Positions 10,574-56,099 of a DNA stretch of 64,000 nt are shown here, piece after piece. The notes under the pieces are model-generated. The model was not told the origin of the DNA. It worked only from the letters and a program-made list of their open reading frames with translations, and did no database searches. Each line of letters starts with the position of its first letter. Within the stretch, counting starts at the first letter, position 1. Source of the stretch: Candidatus Binataceae bacterium (GTDB lineage: Bacteria > Desulfobacterota > Binatia > Binatales > Binataceae); assembly GCA_050011435.1 (NCBI GenBank), contig JBEKJC010000006.1, positions 86,754-150,753 on the forward strand, in the 5' to 3' direction. The position numbers and the translations under genes are program-made.

Positions 10574-10780
10574 CTGAAACCGCATTGAGGTTTCAGACTC
10601 CCCTCTGGTAAAGATGCGGGCTTCGCCCTGTAAAAAGGGGCCGCATAAGATTGCGAGATCGCTCAGCGCCGAACGCATGATACAGGATGCGGGCGATGAT
10701 AGCGGGATCGAGCAGCGCGAGCAGTCCGAAAAATCAGGTCAAGCAAGACTGTTGGGCTGCTGGTCAATCATTGAAAAACG
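10574..10780. repeat. Intergenic repeat element, copy 2 (divergent promoter region)
   Basis: Contains CTGAAACCGCATTGAGGTTTCAGACTCCCC, GATGCGGGCTTCGCCCTGTAAAAA, ATCGAGCAGCGCGAGCAGTCCGAAAAATCAGGTCAAGCAAGACTGTTGGGCTGCTGGTCAATCATTGAAAAACG. Confidence 0.8.
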
Positions 10781-10843
10781 CAACTGGCGGGTGACGCCAT
10801 CGGCGATCTATGATTGTGCCTGCCACAAAGGAGACAAATCCGC

Positions 10844-38535: not shown

Positions 38536-40251
38536 ATGGCGACTGCGCGCAGCGGCTTCGAATCGATCCTGCTCGATCGCTCGTGGGTATCGCCACAAGA
38601 TCTCGCAAAGGCTCATCAGCGCAAGAAACCGGGACAGGAGATTGCCGACGTCCTGATTGACATGGGCGCGCTCGAACCGCAGCGCCTGGCCCGCGCGCTG
38701 GCGCAGGAATACGGCCTGCCCTTTCAGGCCCATATCGACGCCGCCACTCTCGAAAACGACTTGGTCGCGAAAGTCCCGATAAATTACGCCAAGCGCAACC
38801 GCTTGCTGCCGGTCGCGAGCGATGGCGCGACGGTCACGGTGGCGATAGCCGATCCCGCCAATTACGAACCGCTCGACGACCTACACGTGCTCTTCGGCAA
38901 GCCGATCGTGGCGGTAGTGGCGCCGGCCGAGGTTATCAACGAGGCGATCAACCGCGCCTACGACCAGGCGGCGACGACCACGGCCCATGACCTGATGATC
39001 GATCTCGAGGAGGACCGGCTCGACCAGGTCGCGAGCGAACTGGCGTCGGAGCCGCGCGACTTGCTCGAGGCCGACGATGCCGCGCCGATTATCCGGCTGG
39101 TCAACGGGCTGCTGTCGCAGGCGGTGAAGGACCGCGCGAGCGATATCCATATCGAGGTGTTCGAGCGCGACCTGGTGGTGCGCTTTCGCGTTGACGGCAT
39201 GCTCTTCGACGTGTTGACGCCGCAGAAGCGTTTTCACGCGGCGATCGCCTCGCGCATCAAGGTCATGTCGGGCCTCAACATCGCGGAGAAGCGGCTACCG
39301 CAGGACGGGCGCATCCGGCTGCGCATCGCCGGGCGCGACATCGATATCCGGGTCTCGACCATCCCGACGGCATTCGGCGAGCGGATCGTGCTGCGATTGT
39401 TGGACCGGGCGCAGGCGCTGGTCGATGTGAACCTGGACCGGCTGGGATTCTCGGGCGACAATCTGCCCAAAATCGAGCGGCTGATTCATCAGAGCCATGG
39501 CATTATCCTGGCGACTGGCCCGACCGGTTCGGGCAAGACGACGACGCTGTACGCATGCCTCAGCCGGATCAATTCACCTGAAAAGAACATCATCACGATC
39601 GAAGATCCGATCGAGTATCAGCTCCACGGTGTCGGCCAGATGCAGGTCAGTCCGAAGATCGAGCTGACCTTCGCCAACGGGCTGCGTTCGATTTTGCGCC
39701 AGGATCCCGACGTGATCATGGTCGGTGAAATCCGCGACAGCGAGACCGCCGAGATCGCGATCCAGGCGGCGCTAACCGGGCATCTGGTGTTCTCGACGCT
39801 GCATACCAACGACTCCTTCGGCGCGCTGACGCGGCTGATCGACATGGGGATCGAGCCTTTCCTGGTGTCGTCGTCGGTAATCGCGGTGCTGGCGCAGCGC
39901 CTGCTGCGCGTGGTGTGCAACGATTGCCGCCAGCCGTACAACCCGACCGAAGCGGAGCTCACCCGGATCGGTCTCGGCGGAGTGCGCCTGACCAAGCCGA
40001 TCTATCGGCCAGCCGGATGCAAGGCCTGCCGCAATACCGGATATCGCGGCCGTACCGCCATCACCGAACTGATGGTGGTCGATGACGATGTGCGGGGCCT
40101 CGTGATGCAGAAGGCTGACGGCTCGATGATCCGGCGCGCGTGCACCGCCAAGGGCATGAAGCTGCTGCGCCAGGATGGCGCCGATCGCATCCTGGCGGGG
40201 CAAACCACGGTCGAGGAGTTGTTGCGCGTTACGCAGGAAGACCTCGCCTAG
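38536..40251 (+). CDS. gspE: Type II secretion system ATPase GspE
   Basis: N1E domain, Walker A GPTGSGKTTTL, Asp/His boxes, and a tetracysteine motif (CNDCRQ...CKACRNTGYRGR). Confidence 0.95.
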   Translation: MATARSGFESILLDRSWVSPQDLAKAHQRKKPGQEIADVLIDMGALEPQRLARALAQEYGLPFQAHIDAATLENDLVAKVPINYAKRNRLLPVASDGATVTVAIADPANYEPLDDLHVLFGKPIVAVVAPAEVINEAINRAYDQAATTTAHDLMIDLEEDRLDQVASELASEPRDLLEADDAAPIIRLVNGLLSQAVKDRASDIHIEVFERDLVVRFRVDGMLFDVLTPQKRFHAAIASRIKVMSGLNIAEKRLPQDGRIRLRIAGRDIDIRVSTIPTAFGERIVLRLLDRAQALVDVNLDRLGFSGDNLPKIERLIHQSHGIILATGPTGSGKTTTLYACLSRINSPEKNIITIEDPIEYQLHGVGQMQVSPKIELTFANGLRSILRQDPDVIMVGEIRDSETAEIAIQAALTGHLVFSTLHTNDSFGALTRLIDMGIEPFLVSSSVIAVLAQRLLRVVCNDCRQPYNPTEAELTRIGLGGVRLTKPIYRPAGCKACRNTGYRGRTAITELMVVDDDVRGLVMQKADGSMIRRACTAKGMKLLRQDGADRILAGQTTVEELLRVTQEDLA

Positions 40252-40281
40252 CGTGCGCGCCGTCCATCTGGACTAATCCCA

Positions 40282-41511
40282 ATGCCGGTATTCGCTTACC
40301 GCGGTTTGTCCGCCAACGGGCGCTCGATCGCCGGTGTGATCGACGCCGACAGCGCCCGCAGCGCGCGCGGCAAGTTGCGCGACCTCGGGATTTTCCCGAC
40401 CGACCTGGGCGAAGAGGCGGCCGCCGCGCGCGGCTCGGGATGGTCGCTGCGCAGCCTGCTGCCGGTAATGCAGCGCCGTATACCGGCGACGGAACTGGCC
40501 CTGATGACGCGGCAGATGAGTGCCCTGCTGGGCGCCGGCGTGCAACTGACCGAAACCCTGGGCACGCTCGCGGAGCAGGCCACGCGGCCCGCCGTCAAGC
40601 GGATGCTCTCGCAAGTGCGCGAGGCCGTGCGCGAGGGCTCTTCGCTGGCCGACGCGCTAGCGGTGCATCCCGACATCTTTTCCGATCTTTACGTCGGGAT
40701 GGTGCGGGCAGGTGAGACTGCCGGAGCGCTCGAGGCGGTGCTCGATCGGCTGGCGGAATACAGCGAGCGCCAGGCCGAGTTCGTCTCCAAGGTACGCGGC
40801 GCGCTGACCTATCCGATCATCATGATGTGCGTCGGTCTCGCGATCATGGGCTTTCTGGTCAGTTACGTGGTGCCGCAAATCGCGACGATCTTTCAGCAGC
40901 AGCATGCGGCGCTGCCGACCATGACGCGTTGGCTGATAGCGTTCTCCGACTTCCTGACGACGTACTGGCTGGTACTGTTGATCGCCCTGGTGGGGCTGGC
41001 GGCCGCAATCCTGGCCGGACTCTCGAGCAAGCGCGGACGCCGGCTCTACGATGGGTGGCTGCTGCGCGTGCCATACCTCGGCCCGACCGTGATTCGAATC
41101 ATCTGCGCGCGGTTTGCGCGAACGCTCGCGACCCTGCTTTCGAGCGGCGTGCAGTTACTGCCGGCACTGACGGCCGTGCGCCGCGTCGTCACCAACGGCC
41201 TGCTGGCCGATGCGGTTGACGAAAGCCGCGAAAGTATCCGCGAGGGCCATGGCATGGGCCAGACGCTCGCCCGCAGCGGACTCTTTCCGCCGCTGTTGAT
41301 CGAGATGATCAAGGTCGGCGAACGATCCGGCGATCTCGAGCGGATGCTCGAACGGGTGGCCGACAATTATGAGCGCGAGGTGGAATCCTCGCTGCGCCAG
41401 ATGACCACCATGATCGAGCCGTTGATGACACTGGTGATGGCCGGGATGATATTGTTTATGATGTTGGCAGTACTGATGCCAATCTTTCAACTCAACCAGC
41501 TTATGCAGTGA
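40282..41511 (+). CDS. gspF: Type II secretion system inner-membrane platform protein GspF
   Basis: Two T2SSF repeats and three TM segments. Canonical position after gspE. Confidence 0.95.
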   Translation: MPVFAYRGLSANGRSIAGVIDADSARSARGKLRDLGIFPTDLGEEAAAARGSGWSLRSLLPVMQRRIPATELALMTRQMSALLGAGVQLTETLGTLAEQATRPAVKRMLSQVREAVREGSSLADALAVHPDIFSDLYVGMVRAGETAGALEAVLDRLAEYSERQAEFVSKVRGALTYPIIMMCVGLAIMGFLVSYVVPQIATIFQQQHAALPTMTRWLIAFSDFLTTYWLVLLIALVGLAAAILAGLSSKRGRRLYDGWLLRVPYLGPTVIRIICARFARTLATLLSSGVQLLPALTAVRRVVTNGLLADAVDESRESIREGHGMGQTLARSGLFPPLLIEMIKVGERSGDLERMLERVADNYEREVESSLRQMTTMIEPLMTLVMAGMILFMMLAVLMPIFQLNQLMQ

Positions 41512-41581
41512 TGGCTGCCTTCGGTGTTAATTGGCGCCAGTGATAATTGCGGCAATGATGCCCAACTCAAGGATGAAAACG

Positions 41582-42022
41582 ATGCGTGACAGGCTCCGCC
41601 GATCTCAGGAAGGTTTCACCCTGATCGAACTCATGGTGGTCATCTTGATCATCGGACTGCTGGCCACGATCGTGGTACAGAACCTCAAGGGCGCGACCGA
41701 CAAGGCCAAACGAATCAAGGCGCAGGCGGATATCTCGGCGTTCAAGACTGCGCTCGATCGCTATTACCTCGACAACGGCGCATACCCTTCAAGCGACCAA
41801 GGACTGGCGGCGTTGGTCAGCGCACCGCAAAACGGCAAGGTGCCGGCCGATTATCCTTCTGGCGGATACATCGAAAAAATTCCGAACGATCCGTGGGGCA
41901 ACCCATACGTCTATCAGAGCGACGGCGACAATTACGTGCTGAAGTCGTACGGCGCCGATGGAGTCGAGGGCGGCACCGGGAAGAACGCGGATATTGACGG
42001 CAGCAGCAACGGCGGCGGCTAG
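41582..42022 (+). CDS. gspG: Major pseudopilin GspG
   Basis: Prepilin leader + GFTLIELMVVILIIGLLA. The GspG-specific DPWGNPYVY calcium-binding region. Confidence 0.9.
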   Translation: MRDRLRRSQEGFTLIELMVVILIIGLLATIVVQNLKGATDKAKRIKAQADISAFKTALDRYYLDNGAYPSSDQGLAALVSAPQNGKVPADYPSGGYIEKIPNDPWGNPYVYQSDGDNYVLKSYGADGVEGGTGKNADIDGSSNGGG

Positions 42023-42087
42023 CGCAAGCGCGACCCTTGCCGAAGCTTTGGCGCCATTGGGCCACAAGGCGAATCGTTGACAATTTG

Positions 42088-42645
42088 ATGCGCGAAACAC
42101 GACCGCCGCGAGCTTATCGACGCTTCCAGCGCGGCTTCACGTTGCTCGAACTGGCGGTCGTGATGTTCCTGATCGGGCTCGTGATGACGATCGCGATGCC
42201 CTACTTCGGCAGCATGCAGACCTCGCAGATGCGCAGCGAAGCGCGCCGCCTGGCCAGCCGCGCCAACTATCTTTATCAGGAGGCGGGGGCGCAGAAGGTG
42301 ATCCTGCGCCTGACCTTCGATCTCGCCAATAACGGATACTTCGCCTCGCGCTTAGACCCGTTCGCGGTCAAGCCCGCGTTCCTTCCGGAAAATGGACCGG
42401 CCGGCGTGCGCGTCGTGATGCCCGCGGGTGTCTGGATTCGCGATGTCACGGTCGAGGGGCTGGGGACCGTGCGGCGCGGACTCGTGAGCGCCCAGTTCTA
42501 TCCGGGCGGTTCCGTGGACGCGACTCTGATTCATCTGGCCGACAGCAAGGGCGAGGTCTTCACGCTGGCGATCGATCCATTCAGCGGCCACGTTTCGATC
42601 GTTCGGGGCGACGTGGGTCCCACACGCGGCGGGGCCTCCCAGTGA
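42088..42645 (+). CDS. gspH: Minor pseudopilin GspH-like
   Basis: RGFTLLELAVVMFLIGLV prepilin N-terminus at an internal ATG (42088). Confidence 0.75.
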   Translation: MRETRPPRAYRRFQRGFTLLELAVVMFLIGLVMTIAMPYFGSMQTSQMRSEARRLASRANYLYQEAGAQKVILRLTFDLANNGYFASRLDPFAVKPAFLPENGPAGVRVVMPAGVWIRDVTVEGLGTVRRGLVSAQFYPGGSVDATLIHLADSKGEVFTLAIDPFSGHVSIVRGDVGPTRGGASQ

Positions 42646-43139
42646 AGTGCGAAGAGGTTGCGCACGCCGATCGGGCGGCCGTCGCAAACGGGGCATCGTG
42701 CAACGCGCGCAGTGGTTTTACGCTGCTGGAGGTGATGATCGCGGTCGCCTTTATCGGAATCGCGATGCTCGCGCTGCTGTCGCTGCATCAGAGCAACCTC
42801 GCCTCTGTAATTCGCGCGCAAGACCTGACCCGCGCGTCGATGCTCGGGCAGCAATTGATGAGCACGGCCGAGGCGGAGCGTTTCCCGCTACCGGGGCAGA
42901 CCCGCGGCGACTTTTCCCGTGATTATCCGGGCCTGTACCAGAATTTCCGCTGGGAGCGCACGGTTGATGTGCTGCCGGAGTTCCCCGACGTGCGGCGCGT
43001 GCGCATCAGCATCATCTACGGCCATCGCTTCGGCCGCCGCTTCAACTTGCTGGAATTCATGCACAACCCCACTCCTCCGCAAATTCCCGGACTGAACGCC
43101 GGCGCCAATTCAAGCGCCTCGGACGATGCGGTCCAATGA
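42642..43139 (+). CDS. gspI: Minor pseudopilin GspI-like
   Basis: SGFTLLEVMIAVAFIGIAMLALL prepilin N-terminus. GTG start overlapping the gspH stop. Confidence 0.75.
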   Translation: MKCEEVAHADRAAVANGASCNARSGFTLLEVMIAVAFIGIAMLALLSLHQSNLASVIRAQDLTRASMLGQQLMSTAEAERFPLPGQTRGDFSRDYPGLYQNFRWERTVDVLPEFPDVRRVRISIIYGHRFGRRFNLLEFMHNPTPPQIPGLNAGANSSASDDAVQ

Positions 43140-43819
43140 TGCGTGCCCCACGCCTCCGCGAGCATCGCCCCTACGCCGCCGCGTTTACGCTGATCGAGAT
43201 CATGCTCGCGGTCGCGATCCTGGGGATGGTGCTGCTGATGCTCGCGGAATCGTTTCATGCGGTGGCAGGCAGCAAGGTCCACGGGGAGAATCGGATTGCG
43301 ATCGATCAGGCGGCGCGCACGATACTGTCGCAGATGAGCAACGAATTGCGTGGCGCGGTGCAAACTCCGTTTATCGCGAGCCGCGTAATTCTGCTGGGTA
43401 ACGCGCGCAAGGAAGGGGGCGCGCCAATGGACACCTTCACCGTATCGACGCTCGACCCGGGCCATCGGCGCAGCCTCGAGGGCTTCGGGCCGGAAGATAC
43501 GGTTGCCTACGTCACCACGCCAAATCCAGACCATCGCGGATGGTTCCTGTTGAAGCGGATTCAGTACAGTAGCCTGCTGACAAAGCCACCCACTCTCGAA
43601 AATTCGTCGCCAGTGCTGCTGGCCAACAACCTGATCTCACTCCATCTCCGTTATTTTGACGGCACGAACTGGCGCGAAAGCTGGGATTCGACCAGCCTCG
43701 CAGCCGGGCAAGCGCTGCCCGCGGAAATCGCCATTGACCTCAAAATGGGTTCGGGCGGCGGCGCCGCGCTCACGCTGTCCACCGCGGTCTCACCGCCGAT
43801 GGCTTTCCAGGCATGGTAG
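43136..43819 (+). CDS. gspJ: Minor pseudopilin GspJ
   Basis: AAFTLIEIMLAVAILG prepilin N-terminus. GspJ-like LRYFDGTNW...W region. ATGA overlap with gspI. Confidence 0.8.
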   Translation: MMRAPRLREHRPYAAAFTLIEIMLAVAILGMVLLMLAESFHAVAGSKVHGENRIAIDQAARTILSQMSNELRGAVQTPFIASRVILLGNARKEGGAPMDTFTVSTLDPGHRRSLEGFGPEDTVAYVTTPNPDHRGWFLLKRIQYSSLLTKPPTLENSSPVLLANNLISLHLRYFDGTNWRESWDSTSLAAGQALPAEIAIDLKMGSGGGAALTLSTAVSPPMAFQAW

Positions 43820-44787
43820 CGCCGGTCTTGAAGCTGATTCGGCGGGCGCGCCGGCCCGAGCGCGGAATCGCCCTGCTCGCGACGCTGCTTGCAATCGCGC
43901 TGATGACGATCCTGGTGGTCGATTTTGCCACCTCGGCGGCGCTCGGCTATCGTGCCGCCGCCAACCAGGCGGACGAATTGCGCGCGCTCTACCTCGCACG
44001 ATCGGCGATCCAGGTAGGGATCGCGATACTCGAGCGCGACTCGATCAGCGACGCGCAGCAGAAGACCCCATACGACTCGCTCACGGATGTCTGGGCAATC
44101 AAAGTTCCGCCGATTCCGGTCGAGGGCGGGACGGTCTCAGTCTCGATCATTGACGAGGCGCGCAAGCTCAATATCAATCAGCTTTACAATTTGCGTGCGC
44201 GCCAGGTTGACGACAAATTCGCCCAGGTGATTGCGCGGCTATTCGAGGGTATCGGCGTCTCAACCGATCTCATCCCGGTGCTGGTTGACTGGCTGGATCC
44301 CGACAGCGTCGAATCGCCGGGAGGCGCCGAAGCCGATTATTATTTGGGCCTGACGCCACCGTACGAGCCGCGCAACGGTCCGATGCCGACGATTGGCGAC
44401 CTGCGCGCGCTCAAGGGCGTGGACGACGCGGCCTTCATGCAACTCGCGCAATACCTGACCACGGCGCCCGAGGCGCGCATCAACGCCAACACCGCGTCGC
44501 CGGAGGTGCTGGCGGCGCTGACGCCGGAGTTGTCGAATAGCCCCGATCTGGTCAAGGCCATCATCACAGCGCGCGAGTACCGTCCATTTCTCGCGGTAAC
44601 CGATGTCGCGAATCTGCCGGGTATCGGACAGTTCGCCGCGCGTCTGACCCCGCTGTTAACCACGCGCAGCTCTTACTTTACGATTATCGGTCAGGGAGAA
44701 TTTGCCGGGGCGCGCCGGCGCATCTATGCGGTCTTTCGGCGCAATTCGAATGGCTCCGCGATGCTGATAAGCTGGCACGAAGATTAG
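43813..44787 (+). CDS. gspK: Minor pseudopilin GspK
   Basis: GIALLATLLAIALMTILVVDFA N-terminus. GspK size and position. NINQL... helix-hairpin-helix-like C-terminal region. Confidence 0.85.
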   Translation: MVAPVLKLIRRARRPERGIALLATLLAIALMTILVVDFATSAALGYRAAANQADELRALYLARSAIQVGIAILERDSISDAQQKTPYDSLTDVWAIKVPPIPVEGGTVSVSIIDEARKLNINQLYNLRARQVDDKFAQVIARLFEGIGVSTDLIPVLVDWLDPDSVESPGGAEADYYLGLTPPYEPRNGPMPTIGDLRALKGVDDAAFMQLAQYLTTAPEARINANTASPEVLAALTPELSNSPDLVKAIITAREYRPFLAVTDVANLPGIGQFAARLTPLLTTRSSYFTIIGQGEFAGARRRIYAVFRRNSNGSAMLISWHED

Positions 44788-44834
44788 GCGTGCGGCGGGA
44801 CGACGAAGGTCATCGCGGAGAAGCGGAGATAAGG

Positions 44835-46298
44835 ATGGGGCTGCGAATCATGGCGCTGGAGTTGGCCGGCGAGCGGGTGCGCGCGGCGATTGCCGATCGC
44901 TCCTGGAACTCGCTCGAGCTGATCGGCGCGTGGGAGCAGCAACGCGGGCAGGACGAAGCCGACCTCGTGCCGGCGATCATGCGGATCATCGACGCGGCCG
45001 GCCATCCCGATATCCTGGTCTCGGCGCTGCCGGGCGAGTTCGTCGCCAAGCGGGTGCTCGCGCTGCCCTTTAGCGATCGGCGCCGGCTCGCGCAGGTGGT
45101 GCCATTCGCGCTCGAGGAGCATCTGCCGTTTCCGGTTGACGACGCCGCAGTCGCCTTCGCGCGCGTCGGCCGCGAGGATGCCAAGACCCTCGTCATCGCG
45201 GCCATCGCCCGCAAAGCGGATGTGCAAAGGCATCTCGAATTGCTGGCACGCGCGGGACTCGATCCCAAGGTCGTCACGCTCGGGACGCTCGCGTTGGCGG
45301 GCTTGCTGGCGCGTGCGCGCAACGGCGCGGGCGGCGCTCATCTGGTGGTCGACATCGATCACGCTTCGACCTCGATGGTGCTGATCGACTCGCGCGGCAC
45401 GCCACGGGCGGTGCGCACCGTCAGCCGCGGCATCGATCCGCACGACGGCGACGCCGCCCTGCCCATACCCGCAGCCGCGGTGATCCTGGGCGCGGTGCGC
45501 CAGACCCTGCTCGCGCATGGCTCGGACGAGGCGCCGCCCGATCTCGTGTTGACCGGCGCGGCCGCGGCCACGCCCGCGGTTCGCGAACAGATCGGCGGCG
45601 GACTGGCCGTGCCGATCCATTACGTTGACGAATTCGATTGCTCGTCGTTCTTCGCCGGCAGTCGCACGGAGCCGGTCGCCTTCGCGCCGTGTCTCGCGAT
45701 GTTGCTGGCCGAGGCCCCCAGCAAGCCGCTCGAGCTGCTGAATTTCCGCCAGGGCGAATTTGCCTTTCGCGGACTGACGGGCCGGCTGGGTCCGCTGCGG
45801 CTCACGACCACGCTGGCCGCGGTGGCAATCGTTCTTGCGTTGCTGAATTTCCTGATCGGGGTCGCGGTCAACGCTCGGCAGTTGCATCTGTTGAATCGCC
45901 AGATCGCGGAGGTCACCGCACCCGCTCTGGGTGACACGGACCCGGCCATGGCGCAGACCGCGCTGAAGCAAAAGATTGCCGCGATGCGCAAGCGGCTGCA
46001 TCTGATGGGCGGTAACCTCGGCCACGGGTCGCCGCTCGACGAGCTGCTCGCGCTTTCCCGCGCGATTCCGCCCGGAGTGCCGATGCAGGTGAACGACCTC
46101 GTGGTGGACGACAGCGGACTCAAGATTGAAGGCACCGCGGATTCCTTTGCCACGGTTGACCAGGTCAAAAAGGCGCTCGAACGGACGCCGGAATTCGGAT
46201 CGATCCAGGTCGAACATGCGACCGCCGGTTCGGATCCCGGCAAGATCGATTTCCGACTCAACGTGACGCCGCGGGAAAGCGCGACGGGAGCCGACTAG
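44835..46298 (+). CDS. gspL: Type II secretion system protein GspL (PilM-like cytoplasmic actin-fold domain + TM + periplasmic domain)
   Basis: MGLRIMALELAGERVRAAIAD actin-like N-domain, a single TM (TTLAAVAIVLALLNFLIGV), and a periplasmic C-domain. GGAGA SD. Confidence 0.75.
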   Translation: MGLRIMALELAGERVRAAIADRSWNSLELIGAWEQQRGQDEADLVPAIMRIIDAAGHPDILVSALPGEFVAKRVLALPFSDRRRLAQVVPFALEEHLPFPVDDAAVAFARVGREDAKTLVIAAIARKADVQRHLELLARAGLDPKVVTLGTLALAGLLARARNGAGGAHLVVDIDHASTSMVLIDSRGTPRAVRTVSRGIDPHDGDAALPIPAAAVILGAVRQTLLAHGSDEAPPDLVLTGAAAATPAVREQIGGGLAVPIHYVDEFDCSSFFAGSRTEPVAFAPCLAMLLAEAPSKPLELLNFRQGEFAFRGLTGRLGPLRLTTTLAAVAIVLALLNFLIGVAVNARQLHLLNRQIAEVTAPALGDTDPAMAQTALKQKIAAMRKRLHLMGGNLGHGSPLDELLALSRAIPPGVPMQVNDLVVDDSGLKIEGTADSFATVDQVKKALERTPEFGSIQVEHATAGSDPGKIDFRLNVTPRESATGAD

Positions 46299-46301
46299 GC
46301 C

Positions 46302-47009
46302 ATGGCCGTGAACTTGAGGGAACTGCCGGAGAAGCTGCGGACGGCGGCGGGCGAGCGGATGCGCGCGCTCGCGGGCGCCCCGATGGTGCGCAAATCGATC
46401 GATCGCGCCAAGACCATCGTTGGCCGCGGGGCCGAGGAGTTGGGGCGCCGCATCGCGCCGGCCTGGCAGGCCGCGCACGGCTGGTACTCCAAACGCGAGC
46501 AGCGCGAAAAGCTCTTGCTGCGCATCTTCGGTGCGGTCCTCGGGGTGATCGTGCTCTACAATTTCATCTATCTGCCGTTTGTCGGCCTGGGCGAGGGTTT
46601 CGGCGACCGGGTGGTGACGCGCCAGCAACAATTGGCCGAGGTCCGCACCATGATGCGCTCGTACCAGCAAATTAAAGTCGAACTCGCCGCGACCGAAAAG
46701 CGCACCGTGCGAAGCAAGGACTTTTCGCTCTTTTCGATCATCGAGCAGTCCCTGACCAGGAGCGTCGGCCGCGACAAAATCAGCTCGATAACGCCGTCGG
46801 ACCGGACGGTGCCGGGCGGTTATCAGCAGTTCACGGTCGATCTCAAGTTGGCGGGACTTAACCTTGCGCAAATTGTCGACGCGCTTTACGGCGTGCAGAC
46901 GCTGCCGATGCCGGTGACGGTCTCCAACCTGCACCTGCGTCAGCGCACCCAGGACCCGCATTCCTACGACGTCGATATGACCTGCATGTCGTTGGGCCGC
47001 AATGGCTGA
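46302..47009 (+). CDS. gspM: Type II secretion system protein GspM-like
   Basis: Single TM (ILLRIFGAVLGVIVLYNFIYLPF) plus a periplasmic domain. Canonical position. Confidence 0.7.
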   Translation: MAVNLRELPEKLRTAAGERMRALAGAPMVRKSIDRAKTIVGRGAEELGRRIAPAWQAAHGWYSKREQREKLLLRIFGAVLGVIVLYNFIYLPFVGLGEGFGDRVVTRQQQLAEVRTMMRSYQQIKVELAATEKRTVRSKDFSLFSIIEQSLTRSVGRDKISSITPSDRTVPGGYQQFTVDLKLAGLNLAQIVDALYGVQTLPMPVTVSNLHLRQRTQDPHSYDVDMTCMSLGRNG

Positions 47010-47871
47010 AAAAGCCGCAACGATGCCGGCCGCGGGATCGATTCGCGGGCGCTCTGCAATCATCGCATGTGCGGTGATTGGCGTGGCGGTCTTCGCGGCC
47101 TTCCTGGTCGCCGACTTTCCCTATAGCGATACGCTCACGTCGATGCTCGCCCCGTACCAATTGAAGCTCACCTACCAGTCGCAGCACCTCAGTCCGCCGA
47201 TCGGCGCTACGCTGACCGACGTGCGCCTGTTCTCGACCGCGGGAATCAATGACGAGGCGTTGCTACAAAGTCCTGCCGTGACGCTCGCACCAACGCTCGC
47301 GGCGCTGCTGCTCGGGCGGCGGGGTATGCACGTGCATGCAGAACTCTATGGCGGTACGGTCCATGTGACGATTTATCAGTATGCTGACAACGTCGATTTG
47401 AAATTCAACCTGGATTCACTGAAGCTCGGGGAGAGCCCGCCGCTAAGGCAGCTGGGCGTGATTTTGAACGGCGATTTGTCGGGTGCCGGCACCGCGCATA
47501 TCGCCGGGCCGAAGCTTCCCGACGATCGCGCCGCGATGGTGATAACCGGCGATAACCTCGCGTTTTCGGTCGTCCGTGGCTTCCCCGCGATCCATCTCGG
47601 GACGCTGACCGGAAATCTCCAATTGGATCAGGGCGCGATCAAGCTGACCGATATCGTCGCGCATGGTGCGGACCTCGACCTCAAGGGCGCCGGCACTATT
47701 GAACTCGGCGACAGCCCCGACGACAGCACCATCGACGTGACCTTCTATCTCATTCCGACACAGAGCGGCCGCGATCATTTCGGCTTCTTCCTCAAGCTGC
47801 TGCCGCATCCGCCGGGCCCCGACGCACCCTATATCCTCCAGGGCTATCTGCGGTCGCCGTCGATCAACTGA
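47002..47871 (+). CDS. gspN: Type II secretion system protein GspN-like
   Basis: N-terminal TM plus a periplasmic domain. Last gene of the gsp operon. Overlaps the gspM stop. Confidence 0.65.
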   Translation: MAEKAATMPAAGSIRGRSAIIACAVIGVAVFAAFLVADFPYSDTLTSMLAPYQLKLTYQSQHLSPPIGATLTDVRLFSTAGINDEALLQSPAVTLAPTLAALLLGRRGMHVHAELYGGTVHVTIYQYADNVDLKFNLDSLKLGESPPLRQLGVILNGDLSGAGTAHIAGPKLPDDRAAMVITGDNLAFSVVRGFPAIHLGTLTGNLQLDQGAIKLTDIVAHGADLDLKGAGTIELGDSPDDSTIDVTFYLIPTQSGRDHFGFFLKLLPHPPGPDAPYILQGYLRSPSIN

Positions 47872-48201: not shown

Positions 48202-49206
48202 ATGGCCGCAGCCGCAACGAAATTGGGACTGGAGATGTCGATTGCCTCAACCGCATTCGCCGAGTGTCCGCGCCTCGCCCGTGAGGCCGAAGATCGCGGC
48301 TACGCGTCGATCTGGGTGCCCGAGGTGAGCGGCCCCGACGCCTTCGTCACGCTGGCGACGATCGCGCAGGCGACGACCAAGGCCGACCTCGCGACCGGGA
48401 TCGTGCCGATTCAGATTCGCACGCCCGGTGCGATGGCGATGGGCTTTCTAACCCTCAACGAGCTCTCGGGCGGACGCGCGATCGCGGGCCTCGGCGTTTC
48501 GAGCCCGGTGATCGTTGAACGCTGGCACGGCGCTGCCTACCACAAGCCAATCACGGCGATGCGCGAGTGCGTCACGATCATGCGCCAGCTCTTCACCGAA
48601 GGACGCTGCAAATTCGAGGGCAAGGTCTATCGCAGCGACTTCCGCCTCGGGTTCCAATCGAAATATCCGCCGCCGCGAATCTACCTGGCCGCGCTGAATC
48701 CGCCGATGCTGCGGCTGGCTGGCGAACTCGCCGACGGCGTGCTGCTCAACTATTCGCCCCCCGAAGCGATTCCGCCGATGATCGCGGAGATTCGCGCCGG
48801 GGCGGAAAAGGCCGGACGCAAGCTCGCCGATATCGACGTCGGCATTTACCTGCGGATGTGCATCACGGAGGACGAGGCGGCCGCCGTGAGTGCGTTCAAG
48901 CGCGAACTCGCGACCTACGCCTTCGTCGATCAGTACAACGCCATGTTCGAGCGCTACGGACTGCAGGACGAGTTCGCCGAGGTGCGCCGGCTGTGGCGCG
49001 AGGGCAAGCGCGACGACGCCCCCAACGCCTTGAGCGATGCGGCGGCGCGGCGCCTCGCGGCGTTCGGACCGCCTGCGGCCGGGCGGAAGTTCGTCGAGAG
49101 CTTTCGCGCCGTCGGCGTGAATCATCCGGTGATTTTTCCGATCGGGCCGGGACGCTCCTTAATGCAGCACTTCACAACCACCGTGGACGCACTCGCCGGC
49201 GCCTGA
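48202..49206 (+). CDS. LLM-class (luciferase-like) flavin/F420-dependent oxidoreductase
   Basis: TIM-barrel LLM motifs (ASIWVPE, GLGVSSPVIVERWHG). GGAG SD before the ATG at 48202. Confidence 0.8.
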   Translation: MAAAATKLGLEMSIASTAFAECPRLAREAEDRGYASIWVPEVSGPDAFVTLATIAQATTKADLATGIVPIQIRTPGAMAMGFLTLNELSGGRAIAGLGVSSPVIVERWHGAAYHKPITAMRECVTIMRQLFTEGRCKFEGKVYRSDFRLGFQSKYPPPRIYLAALNPPMLRLAGELADGVLLNYSPPEAIPPMIAEIRAGAEKAGRKLADIDVGIYLRMCITEDEAAAVSAFKRELATYAFVDQYNAMFERYGLQDEFAEVRRLWREGKRDDAPNALSDAAARRLAAFGPPAAGRKFVESFRAVGVNHPVIFPIGPGRSLMQHFTTTVDALAGA

Positions 49207-49394
49207 GGTTACACTGCCTGAAAAGGGCCTGCGGTTTGCGCGTGTCAGCCGGCTAGTGTGTATTTCGCTGGACCATTGACCCGCTATGATGCGTAACGGA
49301 AACTGGAGCCCACCCGTTTAGATGATCCCGCGCGGCCAACGGTCGTGCGGGGTGAATAGAACACGCCTCGATGACGATTCAAAAGGAAACAAGT

Positions 49395-50913
49395 GATGGC
49401 CTACGGGAAGTTGGGAAGGCTGTGCCTGGTCCTCGGTGGCATCTGGATTATCGCCTCGGTGCGTCCGGCAAATGCGGTCGCTGCAAGCGAGGCCCAGACG
49501 CTCAACCGGATCATGCACGAAGTGGATGAGCTGAAGGCCGACAAAGAACAGGACGAAAAGAAAATCCAGGATCTCGAACAGAAGGTCGGCGAGATCCAGG
49601 GTCAGAATCAGCAACTGAAGGCAGCAAATCAAAAGCTGCAAACCGATACCAGCGCGAAGATCGAAACCCTGCAGACGAAGGTCGAAGCGCCATTGGCGAC
49701 ATCGCAGTTTGGCGATGCCTTCGATCGATACCTGGGCTCACACACCTTCACGGTGACCGGGGCGGCCGGCGGCGACTTCATCTATAACCAACAAAGCAGC
49801 GCCCTCGACGGCCTTCATCATGCCTCGCAGAACTCGTTCTTTTTCGACTGGGAGCCGATGATTCTGTACCGCCCGACCGACTGGATCCTGTTTCAGGGCG
49901 TGCTTAGCGCGGGATTTGGAAGTACCGGGACGGGCACTGACCTGTCGACCGCCGATTTCCAGATCACGGTTAACGACTATTTAACAGTCGTGGCCGGTCT
50001 GTTCGATCAACCGTTCGGTGACTGGTACGAGAACCAGAGCCCGATGTGGGTGAATCGGTTTGTCACAGCGCCGCTGCCGTTTGGAGTTGAGCCGGTAGTG
50101 CCGCCGGCGGAGCTTGGAGTCCAGCTGCGGGGCGGCCTGCAGTTCGCCGGCCTCGGTCAGGATTTCGACTATACGGTCTGGGGCGGCAACGGCCCGAACT
50201 ACAGCTCGCCAGTCCTTGGCGCGGCGGTCTCGAGCCCGACGGCAGTCGCCAACAGCCAGACCAACGGCAAATCAATCGGCGCCCGTTTTCGTGTCTATCC
50301 GCTGCCGGTTGATTTGGAAATGGGCCGGCTTGAACTCGGAGCATCCACCTATAATGGCAAGTGGGCAAATGGAAATTGGTTGAACTCATGGGGCGTGGAT
50401 TTCAACTATTTCGTCGATAACCTGCAAACTCGCGGCGAATGGCTGGAATCGTACCGCCAGATGCCCAACGGACAGGCCTCCGACAATCGCCAGGGATGGT
50501 ACCTACAGGCCGGTTACTTCTTAAACAGTCTTAATGTTCCGTTCCTACCCGATAGGCTCAACACCTATCTCCATCGATTAGAGCCGCTGGTGCGTTATTC
50601 GGGAGTTAACCAGCACGGCGTTTCAACCGACGACATCGCCGGGGCTACCGGTGTCGGCCTGGGCGGCATGCAGGTCGGGCTGATTCCCGATTTCGGCCTT
50701 AACGGTTCCCCGGCATTATACGCACCGCACTCTCGCGAAGTGGCTTTGGCGCTCGACTATTGGTTCGCACCATCGATCGTTTGGCAGAACGAATTCGACA
50801 TCGAATTGCCGCGGGCAGGAGGAGTATTCGTTTCATCGACTGGTGCCGAGACACCCGTGGGCGCAACTCCGAACGATCGCGCCTTCCTCACCCAATTCAC
50901 GGTCGGATTCTGA
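49395..50913 (+). CDS. Outer-membrane porin with N-terminal coiled-coil (OprO/P- or bbp2-like)
   Basis: Signal peptide and a 70-aa coiled-coil (ELKADKEQDEKKIQDLEQKVGEIQGQNQQLKAANQKL). Aromatic/Gly-rich barrel ending in a terminal Phe (FTVGF). Confidence 0.7.
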
Positions 50914-50937
50914 GTGGAGGCACCGTCTTGAGAAAAA

Positions 50938-51209
50938 TACTGGCGGCAATCGTACTTGCGACTCTCGCATTCGGATCGGTGGGCGCTCGCGCTTCGGCGC
51001 AAGAGAATCCCAGTCCGGCTGAGCAGAAACGCCTGTTCCGGGAGGGCGCGAAGCTGTGGCCGATTTACTGCAATACTTGTCACAACGCGCGGCCGGGGTC
51101 GGAGAAGGCTCCCTATGAATGGGACCAGATCATAATGCACATGCGGACGCTCGGGAACATACCGCCCGACGACGCCAAGGCGATCCTGCTATACTTGAAG
51201 GCACGATGA
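50938..51209 (+). CDS. Small mono-heme c-type cytochrome
   Basis: TTG start with a GGAGG SD. Signal peptide. CNTCH heme motif and a distal Met (MHM). Confidence 0.65.
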
Positions 51210-51613
51210 AGACGAATTTTAAAGGCGAGGAAGCATTTGTGAGAAAAGCGCGAATTTTTACAGCAATGGTGGCACTCGTGTGTGCTATCGGAATCGCGGG
51301 AGCGGTTCAGCGCGCGTCGGCAGCCGGTGACGATGAAAACCCAAGCGAGCAATACATGGTTTATTGCGCGAAGTGCCATGGCCCGGGCGGTCACGGCGAC
51401 GGCGCAAACGCGTCAACGCTCAAGACACCGCCGCGCAATTTCAGCGACTGCGCGACGATGACGAAAATCTCCGACAACACCATGTTTACGGCGATCAAGG
51501 AAGGTGGAACCGCGGTCAATCTTCCGGGCGATATGCCGCCGTGGGGACAGGCTTTCGACGACAGCGAGATCAAAGGACTGGCCGCCTATGTGCGCAGCTT
51601 CTGCAAGAAGTAG
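51206..51613 (+). CDS. Class I c-type cytochrome (c551/c552-like)
   Basis: ATGA overlap with the upstream cytochrome. Signal peptide. CAKCHGPGGHGDG heme motif and a MPPWG distal Met region. Confidence 0.8.
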   Translation: MKTNFKGEEAFVRKARIFTAMVALVCAIGIAGAVQRASAAGDDENPSEQYMVYCAKCHGPGGHGDGANASTLKTPPRNFSDCATMTKISDNTMFTAIKEGGTAVNLPGDMPPWGQAFDDSEIKGLAAYVRSFCKK

Positions 51614-51780
51614 CGTGGGCTGTCGCTACTGAAAATAACCACCGAAACTGAGCTCTAGCGGAAACCACGTCTGAGCCGTACCGCCTATGACAACGACACG
51701 GCTCGTCATCGCAACTACCTGATCTCCCGCGATTCCCCGCCGAACCCCACGCATAAGTCTCTCGCGCGCTTTTCGTCAGG

Positions 51781-52740
51781 TTACGGCTCCGCCTTGAAGA
51801 TTCCCGCCGCACCCTTGTATTGGCTCGCGCGGTTGAGGTCCATGAAACTATAAATTCCGGGCTCGTTGACGGTGAATTCGAACACGGCGCCGTCGCTCGG
51901 CGCCACTTCGAAGGTGCTGATGCCGTGCATCGCATTGGCCGGATTGCCACCGCGATAGACGGTGCTGAACAGGACGCCGGCGACATGCCACGATGAGGTC
52001 ATATTGGGTCCGGCGTTGACAAAGAATACCCGCACCAGTTTGCCGACCTTCAACTTAATTGGATGGTCGCGGTCATACTTGTTCATCGCGCCGTCAAAGA
52101 CGATGAAATCGGGCTGCGCCGCAATCATTTTCGTATGGTCGCCGGTGATTAAACCCCGCTTGTCGGGCAAGCCGTAAAACTCGCTCTGCACCAGCGTCAC
52201 TTCCTGGGCGTCGCCGTCCGGCCATCCATCCTTCGGCTCAACGATCATCATCCCATACATGCCGCTGGCAATATGGTCGAGAATCGGCGGCGCGTAGCAA
52301 GTGTAAGCAAACACGCCCGGAACGGTGGCCCGGAACGTATAGCCGACCGGCTTGATCGGATCCCCGGCAAAATGTGAGGGGGCAACCTGCGCCGCGTGAA
52401 CGTTGATGCCGTGCGCGTCGCCAGTGTGATTGGCCAGAGCGATAGTCACGTCGTCGCCTTCACGCGCCTTGAGGACCGGCCCGGGCACGGTACCGTTGAA
52501 GGTCGTCGCGTTGTAGGTCACGCCAGTGCCAAGGCGGACGGGCTTGCTTTCGACGGTGAGCGTGAACTTTTGATCAGCCGCATCGGCCCGGAGCGAAAAT
52601 CCCGCCACGACCAGCATAACGGCGGCCGCCGCGGCGAGCGCGCGACCGACGAAATGCTTTGCAGTGTGCGCCATGAGGCGTCCCGCAATCCCATCCCCGT
52701 TATCGCAACGGCGCAGTGAATCCGAAGTCAGTAGGGCCAT
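51781..52740 (-). CDS. NirK-like two-domain cupredoxin (copper nitrite reductase homologue with apparently degenerate type-2 Cu site)
   Basis: HGINVHAA (cf. NirK HNVDFHAA) and YTCYAPPILDHIASGMYGMMIV (cf. [23 protein letters not shown]). The T1 Cu ligands H/C/H/M are retained. The T2 His next to the Cys is Thr, and the catalytic Asp of HNVDFH is Asn. Confidence 0.7.
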   Translation of the reverse strand: MALLTSDSLRRCDNGDGIAGRLMAHTAKHFVGRALAAAAAVMLVVAGFSLRADAADQKFTLTVESKPVRLGTGVTYNATTFNGTVPGPVLKAREGDDVTIALANHTGDAHGINVHAAQVAPSHFAGDPIKPVGYTFRATVPGVFAYTCYAPPILDHIASGMYGMMIVEPKDGWPDGDAQEVTLVQSEFYGLPDKRGLITGDHTKMIAAQPDFIVFDGAMNKYDRDHPIKLKVGKLVRVFFVNAGPNMTSSWHVAGVLFSTVYRGGNPANAMHGISTFEVAPSDGAVFEFTVNEPGIYSFMDLNRASQYKGAAGIFKAEP

Positions 52741-53193
52741 GTAGTTACCTCTTCCCGAGGCAGCGCAAGCTGCGTGAATACTTAGGTCATTGCTAGTCTT
52801 CCGGAATCCTAATCGAAAGGCGAGACCCGCGCGATGACGACAGGCGCACATACCCCAACTCGCGCTTGCGACCGCGTCGTTGTGCATCGCAGTTTAACGG
52901 GTGGCGCCGATCGAGACAGGGGGACTGATGCTTTTGGACGCAATAGCAAAGCTCTCGAGTCACAGAAATACTAATTTCAATGACAAATATATCTTAATCA
53001 ATGGAACATTTTATGCTGCGAAATGCCTTGGACCTATCGGGTTGCGCGACCGAAGGGAGCCAAGCATTTGCTTTGACTCCCCTCGTAGTCAAAGTTGCTC
53101 AGTTCTGTGATATAGGCTGAGATTAAGGACACGAGGGCCGCGGTAATGGTGAGGCCCGCGGTCGCCCGCGCCAATTTAGGGGGCGGGAAGTAT

Positions 53194-54681
53194 ATGAAAG
53201 AGTCCTCGGCGGCTCTGGTTCTCATTGCTGCTCTTGCAACTACGCAGTTCGCAGTGGGCTGCGTGGGGATCGAATCCGCATCGACGAGATCTACGGTCGG
53301 CGCGCCTGCGGTATCTCCGAACCGCCTCGAATTAGAAGGTTTTTCGATTCTCCCTCCGCAAGGCGACGGATGGCACCGACTGTCGGGTAGTGGAGTCTCG
53401 CGCCTGCTCCTGGGCTTCGACGTACTCTACGTCAAGGCAGTCAGCCCAACCTCATTCGCCCATGCATATGTCGTCGCGCATCGAGTTCCCGGCGACTCCG
53501 ACAATCCGAAAATCCTGGAAGATTCGTTCACGCGCTTCATCGAATCGAGAGGCACGTCGTCGGTAATCGTACGGAGCAGCCGCGATCCGCCCAACTGTCT
53601 GCGGTGGGAAATGGCGCACGAAGCTCGGGACCGATTTCAGGGGGTTCGGTTCGATGGTGAGACGGCGCGCGTATCGCAATATCGGGGTTATCTTTGCTCG
53701 CATCCCGACGACCCTGCATACGTAATCGAAATCGGGTACTTCGACACAGTTTTAATGGGCGCGGCGAAGCCGGCGATCGCTGAGGGCGAAGCGTTCCTTC
53801 ACGGCGTTGCCTTGATGCCACTCGGCGTTAAACTGCGCCAGTATTCGGCGGGTGAAAAGCCCCGCGGAGTGGCCTTGGCAGGCGGCGAGCTTTGGCTAAC
53901 TGAGGAGGACGTGGGGACGGTTGTGCGAGTCGAGCCCGCAAGCGGCTCAATCGCCGCAAGCATTGCGGTGGGAGTGAGGCCTGAGGGACCGGCGGCAGGG
54001 CCGGACGCGGTATGGGTGCCGAACTGGGCAAGCGATTCAGTCTCGCGCATTGACACGCAATCGAGGCAGGTCGTCGCAGCGATTGCGGTCGGGCAGGGGC
54101 CGACGGACGTGGCCGTGAGCGGAACGTCAGTGTGGGTCGCCAATGAGAAGAGCAATTCGGTCTCACGCATCGACGCGATTACCAATCACGTCACGGCGAC
54201 CATCGTGACTGGTGACAGGCCAGTAGCAATCGCCGCCAGCGAGGCGGCGGTTTGGGTCGAAGATTTCGGCACCAACAGGATCTGGCGGATCGATCCGCGG
54301 ACCAATCAGGTCGTGGCAACGATCCGCGTGGGTCAAGGCCGCCACTTGATTGCGATCGCGCCGGACGGCGACGCAGTATGGGCGTCAAACTCTCGAGAGC
54401 GGTCAGTATCGAGAATCGACCCGTCAACCAATCGGGTTATAGCCACCGTCGCGGTCGGGCGTACGCCGATCGGACTCGCGGCAACGGACGGTGTGGTGTG
54501 GGTCGCGAACTTTGGCGACAGCACGGTCTCAAGGATCGATTCGCAGACCAACCTGGTCGTCGGAAAACCCATTCCCGTAGGAGAAAATCCATTTCTGATC
54601 GGCGCTAATGACAAGACGGTCTGGGTACTCAGCGTATGGGACTGGGATCTCGGAACGCTCTCCCGGATCACGGATTTTTGA
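53194..54681 (+). CDS. Lipoprotein with novel N-terminal domain and C-terminal YVTN-family beta-propeller repeats
   Basis: Lipobox FAVGC. About 6 repeats of ~40 aa (VSRID..TN.VVATI.VG..P..VAV....VWVAN). Confidence 0.7.
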   Translation: MKESSAALVLIAALATTQFAVGCVGIESASTRSTVGAPAVSPNRLELEGFSILPPQGDGWHRLSGSGVSRLLLGFDVLYVKAVSPTSFAHAYVVAHRVPGDSDNPKILEDSFTRFIESRGTSSVIVRSSRDPPNCLRWEMAHEARDRFQGVRFDGETARVSQYRGYLCSHPDDPAYVIEIGYFDTVLMGAAKPAIAEGEAFLHGVALMPLGVKLRQYSAGEKPRGVALAGGELWLTEEDVGTVVRVEPASGSIAASIAVGVRPEGPAAGPDAVWVPNWASDSVSRIDTQSRQVVAAIAVGQGPTDVAVSGTSVWVANEKSNSVSRIDAITNHVTATIVTGDRPVAIAASEAAVWVEDFGTNRIWRIDPRTNQVVATIRVGQGRHLIAIAPDGDAVWASNSRERSVSRIDPSTNRVIATVAVGRTPIGLAATDGVVWVANFGDSTVSRIDSQTNLVVGKPIPVGENPFLIGANDKTVWVLSVWDWDLGTLSRITDF

Positions 54682-54805
54682 GCCGTGGCCAGACGACGGA
54701 CTGCGGATCGAGCGAACGATCCTTGCCGGACGGATGTGTGCGTGATACTGGCGTGCTGAGACCGGTGCCGGCCAGGCCGGACCCAAATCCCGCTCCGAGG
54801 TTGCA

Positions 54806-56099
54806 ATGGTTAAAGTAATACTTCAGCTTTATCCGGTAATCCCCGCCAAGAATGAAGAAGAACGCGCGGCCCTGAGGCCGATCGGACGCAACCGCGAACG
54901 CTACCAGGAAACGCTCACCGGCTGGCTATCATTCGCGCAGCCGACAACCTGGGACTCTGGGGCGTCGCCACCATCGAGCATCATTTCTGGTCCGAGGGCT
55001 ACGAATGCGGCCCCAATCCGGGGGTCCTCGACGCCTACTGGGCCGCGATCACGAAGAACGTGCGGGTCGGGCAGATGGGTTATGTGATGAGCACGCAGAA
55101 CTCGATGCGCGTCGCCGAAGAGACCGCGATTATCGACCACTTGACGCGCGGGCGCTGTTTCGTGGGCTTCGCGCGCGGCTACCAGTCGCGATGGACCAAT
55201 GTTATCGGGCAGCATCTCGGCACTCGTGCGACGATTTCGCCGACGGCCGGCGGCGGCGATGAAAACCATATGTTCGCGGGCGAAAAGCAACAGAGCGACG
55301 TTGACGACGACGCCGTCAATCGCCGCATCTTCGAGGAAGAGGTCGATATCGTCGTCAAAGCGTGGACCGAGGACAGTATCTCGTACAAGGGCGAGTCGTG
55401 GCAGATACCGTTTCCGTTCGACAAGGGCGTTGACGATTGGCCGCTGGCGCGGGCGGGCGTGACGGGCAGATTCGGTGCCCACGGCGAGGTCGGCGCTGAC
55501 GGCAACATCCACCGCATCAGCGTGGTACCGGCGCCCTACACGCGGCCGCATCCGCCGGTATTCGTGGCGACGGCGGGTAGCCCTGAAAGCGCGCAATATG
55601 CGGGCCGCCGCGGCTTCATCCCGCTTTACTTCACGAGCCTCAAAAATGCGATCGCGCTGGGCACGGAGTATCAGCAGGCGGCGACTGCCAGCGGCCATAA
55701 TTTCGCGTTCGGGCAGAACCAGGCCGTCGTGCGCATGCCCCATCTGGGCGCGACGATGGAGGATGCGAAGCGCTCGCTGATCGATTACGACGGCGACATT
55801 TTCCGCAATTTCTACGCCTCGATGGGCGGCGGAAGATGGATACCAGCGACGTTTACAAATCGACCACGCAATTCGGCATGTGGGCGGTCGGAACGGTTGA
55901 CGACGTGCGGCGGCAATTGGTCGAGGAGTGGAAGAAGTTTCCAGCCGAGTATCTGACGCTGATCTATCATTACGCGCAGATGCCGAAGGAAGTCGTCATC
56001 CGCAATCTCGAACTCTTCATGCGCGAGATCAAACCCGCACTCGACGAACTGACGCCCTACACCGAGAAAGAGACGGCGTCTGCCGCGGCGGGCCGCTAG
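54806..56099 (+). pseudogene. LLM-class flavin/F420-dependent oxidoreductase gene with two frameshifts (near 54915-54925 and 55830-55840)
   Basis: Three consecutive ORFs in frames 2, 1, 2. LLM N-terminus (MVKVILQLYPVIP...RERYQETL). The middle part (LGLWGVATIEHHFWSEGYE...) is open from 54856. The C-terminus (GTVDDVRRQLVEEW...LELFMREIKPAL). Both shifts fall in G/C runs. Confidence 0.7.

Follow-up and report, generated by a model that had tools for sequence, protein, structure and literature searches.

When the residues that hold the catalytic copper of a nitrite reductase have been replaced, what does the remaining protein do? This question is raised by a locus of a Candidatus Binataceae bacterium (assembly GCA_050011435.1, contig JBEKJC010000006.1, positions 86,754 to 150,753), a stretch of 64,000 nucleotides (nt) that we call the window and whose own numbering is used throughout. 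The window contains a gene for a homologue of the copper nitrite reductase NirK, hereafter the NirK-like protein, which faces a three-gene cassette encoding an outer-membrane porin and two secreted c-type cytochromes (cyt1 and cyt2). A preliminary description of this DNA regarded the homologue as an electron-transfer or alternative-substrate cuproprotein and not as a nitrite reductase, and our analysis supports that reading: type-2 copper histidines and the catalytic aspartate are lost, and the type-1 copper ligands are invariant. Because two of the three type-2 histidines and the catalytic aspartate are gone, the protein is very probably not a nitrite reductase. Judged from its sequence, it is fairly likely to be a pure electron carrier that derives from NirK and holds type-1 copper only.

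The gene and its copper sites are laid out below. Residues are numbered on the product of 319 amino acids (aa), and the NirK equivalents were taken from alignments that are ungapped across every active-site motif.

51781..52740, reverse strand: NirK-like two-domain cupredoxin protein, 319 aa (alternative start Met at 52674; the open reading frame extends to 52887)
52258..52413, reverse strand: codons of the type-1 copper ligands, all four kept according to the alignment
52411-52413, reverse strand: His110, equivalent of type-1 ligand His95
52297-52299, reverse strand: Cys148, equivalent of type-1 ligand Cys136
52273-52275, reverse strand: His156, equivalent of type-1 ligand His145
52258-52260, reverse strand: Met161, equivalent of type-1 ligand Met150
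51835..52404, reverse strand: codons of the type-2 site and catalytic pocket, equivalences likewise from the alignment
52402-52404, reverse strand: Asn113 (in HGINVH), replacing the catalytic Asp98
52396-52398, reverse strand: His115, equivalent of type-2 ligand His100, kept
52300-52302, reverse strand: Thr147, replacing type-2 ligand His135, next to the Cys
51985-51987, reverse strand: His252, equivalent of the catalytic His255, kept
51916-51918, reverse strand: Ser275, replacing a Gln that is invariant in intact NirKs
51835-51837, reverse strand: Leu302, replacing type-2 ligand His306

The NirK-like protein starts with a Sec-type signal peptide, and its gene is convergent with cyt2 across a gap of 167 nt, so that a NirK homologue does face the cytochrome genes as first described. 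A phmmer search against the PDB returned the NirK core domain 6THE as top match (E 1e-48), with about 120 NirK chains after it. An AlphaFold2 (AF2) model was built with a predicted local distance difference test (pLDDT) score of 84.5. Its top 50 Foldseek matches are all NirK, with template modelling (TM) scores of 0.74-0.78; the best reaches a TM of 0.78 at a root-mean-square deviation of 2.3 Å, and identities are 33-36%. In the model, two cupredoxin domains in tandem adopt the NirK fold. A two-domain laccase-type multicopper oxidase, which would bind its trinuclear type-2/type-3 cluster through four HxH motifs, was considered and ruled out, there being no HxH motif in the 319 aa; the matches to Pfam Cu-oxidase_2 and Cu-oxidase_3 are due to the cupredoxin fold alone.

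All four type-1 ligands (His110, Cys148, His156 and Met161) are present, as had been claimed. The preliminary description had also read the His next to the Cys as Thr and the catalytic Asp as Asn, a reading that correctly placed gaps might have overturned. Every motif aligns without gaps, and both substitutions (Thr147 and Asn113) stand. To these we add the loss of the third type-2 ligand, His306, which is Leu302 here, so that one of the three type-2 His is retained (the His100 equivalent). In the pocket, Ile257 is replaced by Ala254. The second catalytic His, that of His255, is present as His252.

A published screen for true NirK demands all seven copper ligands plus the Asp and the His (PMC4770552), and the NirK-like protein fails it because Asp98, His135 and His306 are replaced. 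In terms of the definition of NirK (EC 1.7.2.1), it has the type-1 ligands and lacks both the full set of type-2 ligands and the Asp98-His255 pair. The NCBIfam model TIGR02376 was not used as evidence because genuine class II NirKs fall below its cut-off of 296.3 bits as well: the window protein scores 161 bits, an intact Paenibacillus NirK (L021) 209, and two intact Binatia copies (L013 and L008) 178-179. A literature search for the variant Q262N found nothing, and the role of the invariant Gln was not confirmed.

We consider it very unlikely that the protein is a working copper nitrite reductase with substitute type-2 ligands. The fold and the His255 equivalent are kept, the Joint Genome Institute (JGI) pipeline labels many members of the clade 'nitrite reductase (NO-forming)', and L008, a relative linked to the cassette, has every catalytic residue. 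However, the residues that replace two type-2 His are Thr and Leu, neither of which binds copper, Asp has become Asn, the screen for true NirK is failed, and Binatia genomes contain separate intact copies beside nor-like genes.

The pattern across relatives bears on the same question. A protein database search gave 474 relatives of the NirK-like protein, and the organism, where named, is Candidatus Binataceae. Of the 120 nearest homologues, every one has the type-1 His, Cys and His, and 119 have the Met, the exception having Ile. At the catalytic site, His306 is kept in 3, Asp98 in 19, His100 in 76 and His255 in 79 of the 120; His135 is kept in 109, and Thr at this position is confined to the subclade of the window protein. 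More than 50 distinct residue combinations occur at the type-2 positions across the clade. Among the homologues with an eroded catalytic site, here called degenerate, the entropy of the type-2-site positions lies in the 71st-88th percentile of the core, with the exception of His135 (38th). These positions are invariant in intact NirKs, and the type-1 positions are invariant in the degenerate clade too. Since the type-2 positions are highly variable and the type-1 positions invariant, our results point to loss of the catalytic site rather than to a new conserved site. Just three columns that are conserved in intact NirKs are lost in the derived group (Asp98, the Gln and His306). When a newly conserved site was sought in the degenerate clade, the clade-specific residues were just Gly126, Asp127 and Gly176, which form no ligand set.

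The ratio of nonsynonymous to synonymous substitution rates (dN/dS) of the NirK-like gene is 0.16 against relatives at 81% and 64% identity, and values across the genes of the locus range from 0.08 to 0.30. These values, together with hundreds of homologues for each gene, mean that the genes are real and not chance open reading frames. Overall, the data indicate that the catalytic site has been released from constraint, and that the protein and its type-1 centre stay under selection.

Among species-representative genomes, only metagenome-assembled genomes (MAGs) of Binatia type contain relatives at 53-63% identity. Beyond Binatia, identity falls to 43% or less, and the matches are ordinary class II NirKs (Paenibacillus, Burkholderiales and others); a HMMER pass over 1.8 billion representatives reproduced this gap. 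The wider family was sampled as 149 representatives at 50% identity, and nearly every full-length sequence among them has the three type-2 His. A neighbour-joining tree placed the Binatia clade within class II NirK, with the members that have an intact site at its base and the forms lacking His306 as one large derived group. The degenerate clade comprises more than 100 clusters at 90% identity.

Two other patterns of loss were seen. A third Binatia NirK variant (L010, L012, L014 and L018; match at about 8001-8835) keeps Asp98, His100, His255 and His306, has Gln in place of His135 and lacks the invariant Gln; a gene for an LLM oxidoreductase lies upstream in every case. Three distant NirK relatives (P0395, P0399 and P0438) show the reverse pattern, with the type-1 ligands lost and the three type-2 His kept.

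The same variability bears on whether the protein is a neo-functionalised enzyme, in which the remodelled interface pocket (His115, His252, Asn113, Thr147 and Ser275) would coordinate a metal, copper or other, with altered geometry, or accept a new substrate. Candidate substrates are nitric oxide (NO), hydroxylamine, O2 and superoxide, and the type-1 copper would supply or withdraw electrons. The window protein still has two pocket His, His135 and His255 persist in the numbers of relatives given above, the protein is under purifying selection, and oxidase or superoxide dismutase-like side activities of NirK are known (PMC5755574). Nevertheless, the pocket residues diverge between subclades (NHTHAL, NHHYTQ, FGHDEQ, EMHHSS and others), their positions are among the most variable, and no ligand-type residue is newly conserved. 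We judge this explanation unlikely. A new chemistry shared by the whole degenerate clade is also unlikely; functions specific to single subclades may exist.

The genes that the NirK-like gene faces are as follows.

49396..50913, forward strand: outer-membrane porin, 505 aa (the open reading frame opens at GTG 49393, giving 506 aa)
49489..49686, forward strand: coiled-coil stalk of the porin, residues 33-98, a single helix in the AF2 model
50928..51209, forward strand: cyt1, secreted monohaem cytochrome c, 93 aa, with CNTCH; start TTG behind a GGAGG ribosome-binding site
51206..51613, forward strand: cyt2, secreted monohaem cytochrome c of class I (135 aa); haem motif CAKCH, Met ligand region GDMPPW; match to PF13442 at 1e-10

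The porin begins with a Sec signal peptide, visible as a signal helix in its AF2 model. In this model, of moderate confidence (pLDDT 64.7), residues 33-98 form one long helix, and there are about 16 beta-strands, which agrees with the coiled-coil porin first described. The same architecture, a barrel of about 16 strands after a periplasmic coiled coil, is that of the DcaP/OmpM-like stalked porins. Foldseek matched the model to 16-strand trimeric porins (Omp32, OmpM1, OprP/OprO, OmpU/F and DcaP), and the stalk gave weak matches only, to coiled-coil proteins (the FapF N-terminus, PcsB and Rad50). DcaP of Acinetobacter (6EUS) and OmpM1 of Veillonella (8BYS) likewise have a barrel of about 16 strands after a long periplasmic helix, but sequence identity to the window porin is just 10-12%. 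The SLH domain is a feature of OmpM1; a domain search found none in the window porin. The porin family comprises 595 proteins, Binataceae is the sole lineage named for it by any source, and the dN/dS of the window gene is 0.15.

Two roles in electron transfer across the outer membrane were tried for the porin and set aside. We took as marks of a porin-cytochrome conduit either a haem motif in the barrel, as in the fused Cyc2, or a barrel of at least 20 strands that encloses a multihaem cytochrome, as in MtrAB (compare PioAB and Pcc). Here the sequence contains no CXXCH, the barrel has about 16 strands, and cyt1 and cyt2 are monohaem. The fold predicted by the model is that of an ordinary 16-strand diffusion porin, which disfavours the role of an MtrB-like cytochrome sheath.

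The two secreted c-type cytochromes and their ATGA overlap were confirmed, with one haem motif each. Each starts with a signal peptide, contains CXXCH once and has a distal Met region, as expected of class I c-type cytochromes. The TTG of cyt1 lies 14 nt past the porin stop codon, and the protein contains, besides its CNTCH, a conserved MHMR. Its family (408 homologues of 92-101 aa, strongly conserved) is matched above threshold by no Pfam model, and a sequence search of cyt1 against the PDB gave nothing significant (best E = 0.22). The organisms named for it are all Binataceae/Binatus, and dN/dS is 0.08. The ATG of cyt2 at 51206 overlaps the TGA of cyt1. The window sequence also occurs in ERZ27250143 and JGI 3300017925. 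Public gene calls on identical contigs use an internal Met that gives 85 aa without a signal peptide; we favour the long start because orthologues in L085-L089 measure 120-131 aa and because of the ATGA overlap. The nearest solved relatives of cyt2 are Kuenenia c-552, a CcoP domain and the monohaem subunit of ACIII. No terminator-like sites were found on the forward strand between porin, cyt1 and cyt2.

In at least 11 distinct related loci, porin, cyt1, cyt2 and NirK-like gene follow each other in this order on one strand, in accordance with the outer-membrane/periplasmic redox module suggested at the outset. The full order is found in L006, L008, L009, L086, L087, L127, L139, L162/163, L164 and L166, and in L130 and L161 with the NirK-like gene cut by the contig end; in L007 and L085, cyt2 is followed by the NirK-like gene. 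The idea of a c-type cytochrome as donor likewise holds as far as sequence goes. All cassette-linked NirK-like copies are degenerate, with the exception of L008.

Intact-site copies have other neighbours. Seven were found in GTDB Binatia loci, six of which (L011, L013 at 3583-11430, L015, L016, L017 and L020) adjoin genes for NorC-like and COX1-family (NorB-like) proteins; the seventh is L008. The six intact proteins belong to the same clade as the window protein, at 53-58% identity, and have equal length and the same type of signal peptide. They differ in keeping Asp98, the three type-2 His and the Gln, and in being next to nor-like genes instead of the cassette. Both kinds can occur in one MAG, which carries L007 (degenerate) and L017 (intact). 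The clusters of intact NirK also contain genes for hemerythrin/DUF2249, radical SAM and truncated globin proteins, and look like a canonical NO-handling module.

We then counted what lies around the cassette in 80 metagenome loci anchored on the porin, about 47 of which extend far enough downstream. Wherever the sequence suffices, cyt1 follows the porin directly, unlike in the DcaP and OmpM1 systems. Downstream of the cassette, 33 of the ~47 loci encode a GltD-like flavo-FeS protein, a Rieske protein, a cytochrome b and a cytochrome c of about 314 aa; the NirK-like gene is found in 6 and something else in 8. L127 carries both the NirK-like gene and the Rieske/cytochrome b operon. The cassette is not specific to NirK-like genes, and the Rieske/cytochrome b operon is the commoner partner. 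Operons of this type include L089 (7210-11500), L090 and about 30 more loci (L093-L156), and their GltD-like flavoprotein has 636-639 aa with extra 4Fe-4S domains. They recall the Rieske/cytochrome b complexes of anammox bacteria, which have NAD(P) oxidoreductase subunits, and an outer-membrane porin at the head of a bc-type operon is unusual. Porin, cyt1 and cyt2 form a conserved cassette, known so far from Binatia-type genomes only.

Such an arrangement could also serve electron uptake, with an inorganic donor (Fe(II), for example) outside the cell or in the periplasm, on the lines of the Cyc2-rusticyanin-cytochrome c chain of Acidithiobacillus. The cassette would then be the entry point of an unrecognised lithotrophic chain, with the type-1-only NirK derivative as a rusticyanin analogue on the downhill branch; the uphill branch would lead through the Rieske/cytochrome b complex and its flavoprotein of NAD(P) type. 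The parts fit, in that a blue copper protein occurs with small c cytochromes and a barrel in the outer membrane; porin and cyt1 are always coupled where the sequence suffices, and the cassette also heads operons with a GltD-like flavo-FeS subunit. The chain of Acidithiobacillus and neutrophilic iron oxidisers likewise combines a barrel, a monohaem cytochrome c and a type-1 copper protein with a bc-type link, and Cyc2 is a fused cytochrome-porin (PMC8406198). However, the Cyc2 barrel carries haem and the window barrel, which is akin to ordinary 16-strand diffusion porins, does not. Rusticyanin is a single-domain cupredoxin, whereas the window copper protein derives from NirK and has a size of 30 kDa. 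The two cytochromes are soluble, with one haem and a Sec signal each, and a literature search, of incomplete coverage, gave no link between Binatia and iron oxidation. We regard electron uptake as improbable, and the same holds for the split of electrons into a downhill and an uphill path.

We return to the reading of the NirK-like protein as an electron carrier. It would be a periplasmic descendant of a class II copper nitrite reductase that has lost the type-2 site and kept the type-1 (blue) centre. This centre would exchange electrons with the neighbouring monohaem cytochromes c, that is cyt2 and possibly cyt1, and the cassette cytochromes would tie the protein to the cytochrome c pool served by the Rieske/cytochrome b complex. 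Because the cassette usually heads a Rieske/cytochrome b operon, the protein may form an accessory branch of this periplasmic pool within the respiratory chain. That the protein contains copper, assembles into trimers and exchanges electrons with cyt2 is inferred, as are the direction of flow and any partner at the end of the path. In L008 an intact site occurs together with this cassette, which suggests that the cassette probably first served as electron donor to a working NirK.

Several observations weigh against this reading. Two histidines of the pocket, His115 and His252, are still in place, and a reduced pocket might yet bind a metal or a substrate through them. In L008 the cassette accompanies an intact catalytic set; such linkage fits a cytochrome-fed enzyme equally well, and for this reason cassette linkage alone is no proof of a carrier role. 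Beyond the cytochromes, no donor or acceptor gene consistently adjoins the NirK-like gene. In the window this gene is inverted and sits on a 3.1-kb indel, so co-regulation with the cassette is not evident there. Finally, the tree is a neighbour-joining tree with no support values.

Known systems provide parallels. The class II NirKs of Bradyrhizobium ORS 375 (6THE), Neisseria (AniA, 1KBV/5UE6), Geobacillus (GtNiR) and Nitrosomonas (4KNS) share the fold (TM 0.75-0.78), the type-1 His/Cys/His/Met, the His255 equivalent and an SSFHV-type motif region with the window protein, at 33-36% identity. Where they have Asp98, His135, His306, Ile257 and Gln, it has Asn, Thr, Leu, Ala and Ser. Laboratory type-2-depleted (T2D) NirKs (for example T2D RpNiR, PDB 6FJA) are also NirK scaffolds with type-1 copper only, and their existence means that the NirK fold is stable without type-2 copper. 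They arise by metal removal or mutation, whereas the window protein is natural and evolutionarily maintained, with its ligands replaced. Nitrosomonas europaea has an ncgABC-nirK operon, which encodes a multicopper oxidase, two c cytochromes and then NirK. As in the cassette loci, the unit has four genes, and a nirK-type gene of class II comes right after two small c-type cytochrome genes; however, the first gene there encodes a multicopper oxidase and the NirK there is intact, whereas the window has a porin first and an inverted NirK-like gene.

The window locus itself can be compared with L088, which is syntenic at about 80% DNA identity (type II secretion system genes, LLM, porin, cyt1, cyt2, LLM, Clp, ABC, G6PD). 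The features concerned are these.

51616..54739, strand not assigned: 3.1-kb segment missing from L088 (blastn synteny), carrying the NirK-like and beta-propeller genes
53146..54681, forward strand: YVTN/NHL-type beta-propeller protein, probable lipoprotein (FAVGC lipobox), divergent from the NirK-like gene

The guanine-cytosine content of this segment is slightly lower (0.585-0.589). No repeats of note flank the indel, and there is no sign of a mobile element. The NirK-like gene is inverted relative to the cassette in the window, in contrast to its relatives, where both are on the same strand. The beta-propeller gene was absent from all other related loci searched; as it neighbours the NirK-like gene in the window lineage only, we rejected it as a member of the module.

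Beside the indel, the LLM oxidoreductase orthologue (429 aa and intact in L088) is split over three frames (54806-54925, 54928-55827 and 55800-56066). These two frameshifts (54806-56066) reflect either a pseudogene or an assembly error. A gene on a recently inserted segment with such a neighbour might be a decaying, non-functional paralogue, but its open reading frame is intact, its dN/dS of 0.16 was obtained against two relatives, and more than 100 degenerate homologues, spanning about 50-100% identity, show no change in the type-1 ligands. We find decay hardly credible.

A type II secretion operon (38536-47871) lies directly upstream of the LLM and porin genes, an order kept in L088; within it, public gene calls of an identical contig gave matches to GspL, GspM and GspK-like proteins. 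Regulatory scans of 49000-53300 found terminator-like sites at chance level and none within the 167-nt convergent gap. The promoter-like sites in the same region were all on the reverse strand, with none upstream of the porin or NirK-like starts. RNA folding of the gap showed no structure (z = 0.23). A scan for FNR/Dnr boxes (TTGAT-N4-ATCAA, at most 2 mismatches) returned one site with two mismatches (52988-53001), between the NirK-like and propeller genes, which is unconvincing alone.

The fold, the type-1 site and the upstream pairing with cytochromes are already known from class II NirK systems. For a natural NirK clade without the type-2 site, or for the porin-cytochrome cassette, we found no description in a literature search of incomplete coverage, and both the clade and its coupling to the cassette are apparently undescribed within that coverage.

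Binatia are common in soil and peat metagenomes. In nitrogen-cycle surveys, homology-based labels can score their genomes as nitrite reducers from the wrong gene, and a residue filter on Asp98, His135 and His306 separates the degenerate copies from the intact paralogues beside nor-like genes. The uncharacterised cassette of a porin and two cytochromes, which heads most of the Rieske/cytochrome b operons found here, offers a handle on how the respiratory chain is organised in uncultured Binatia. For the family, this large NirK-descended clade, without the catalytic copper site and with the type-1 site under purifying selection, is a natural experiment on a much-studied enzyme, and it suggests that an enzyme may have been turned into a redox carrier.

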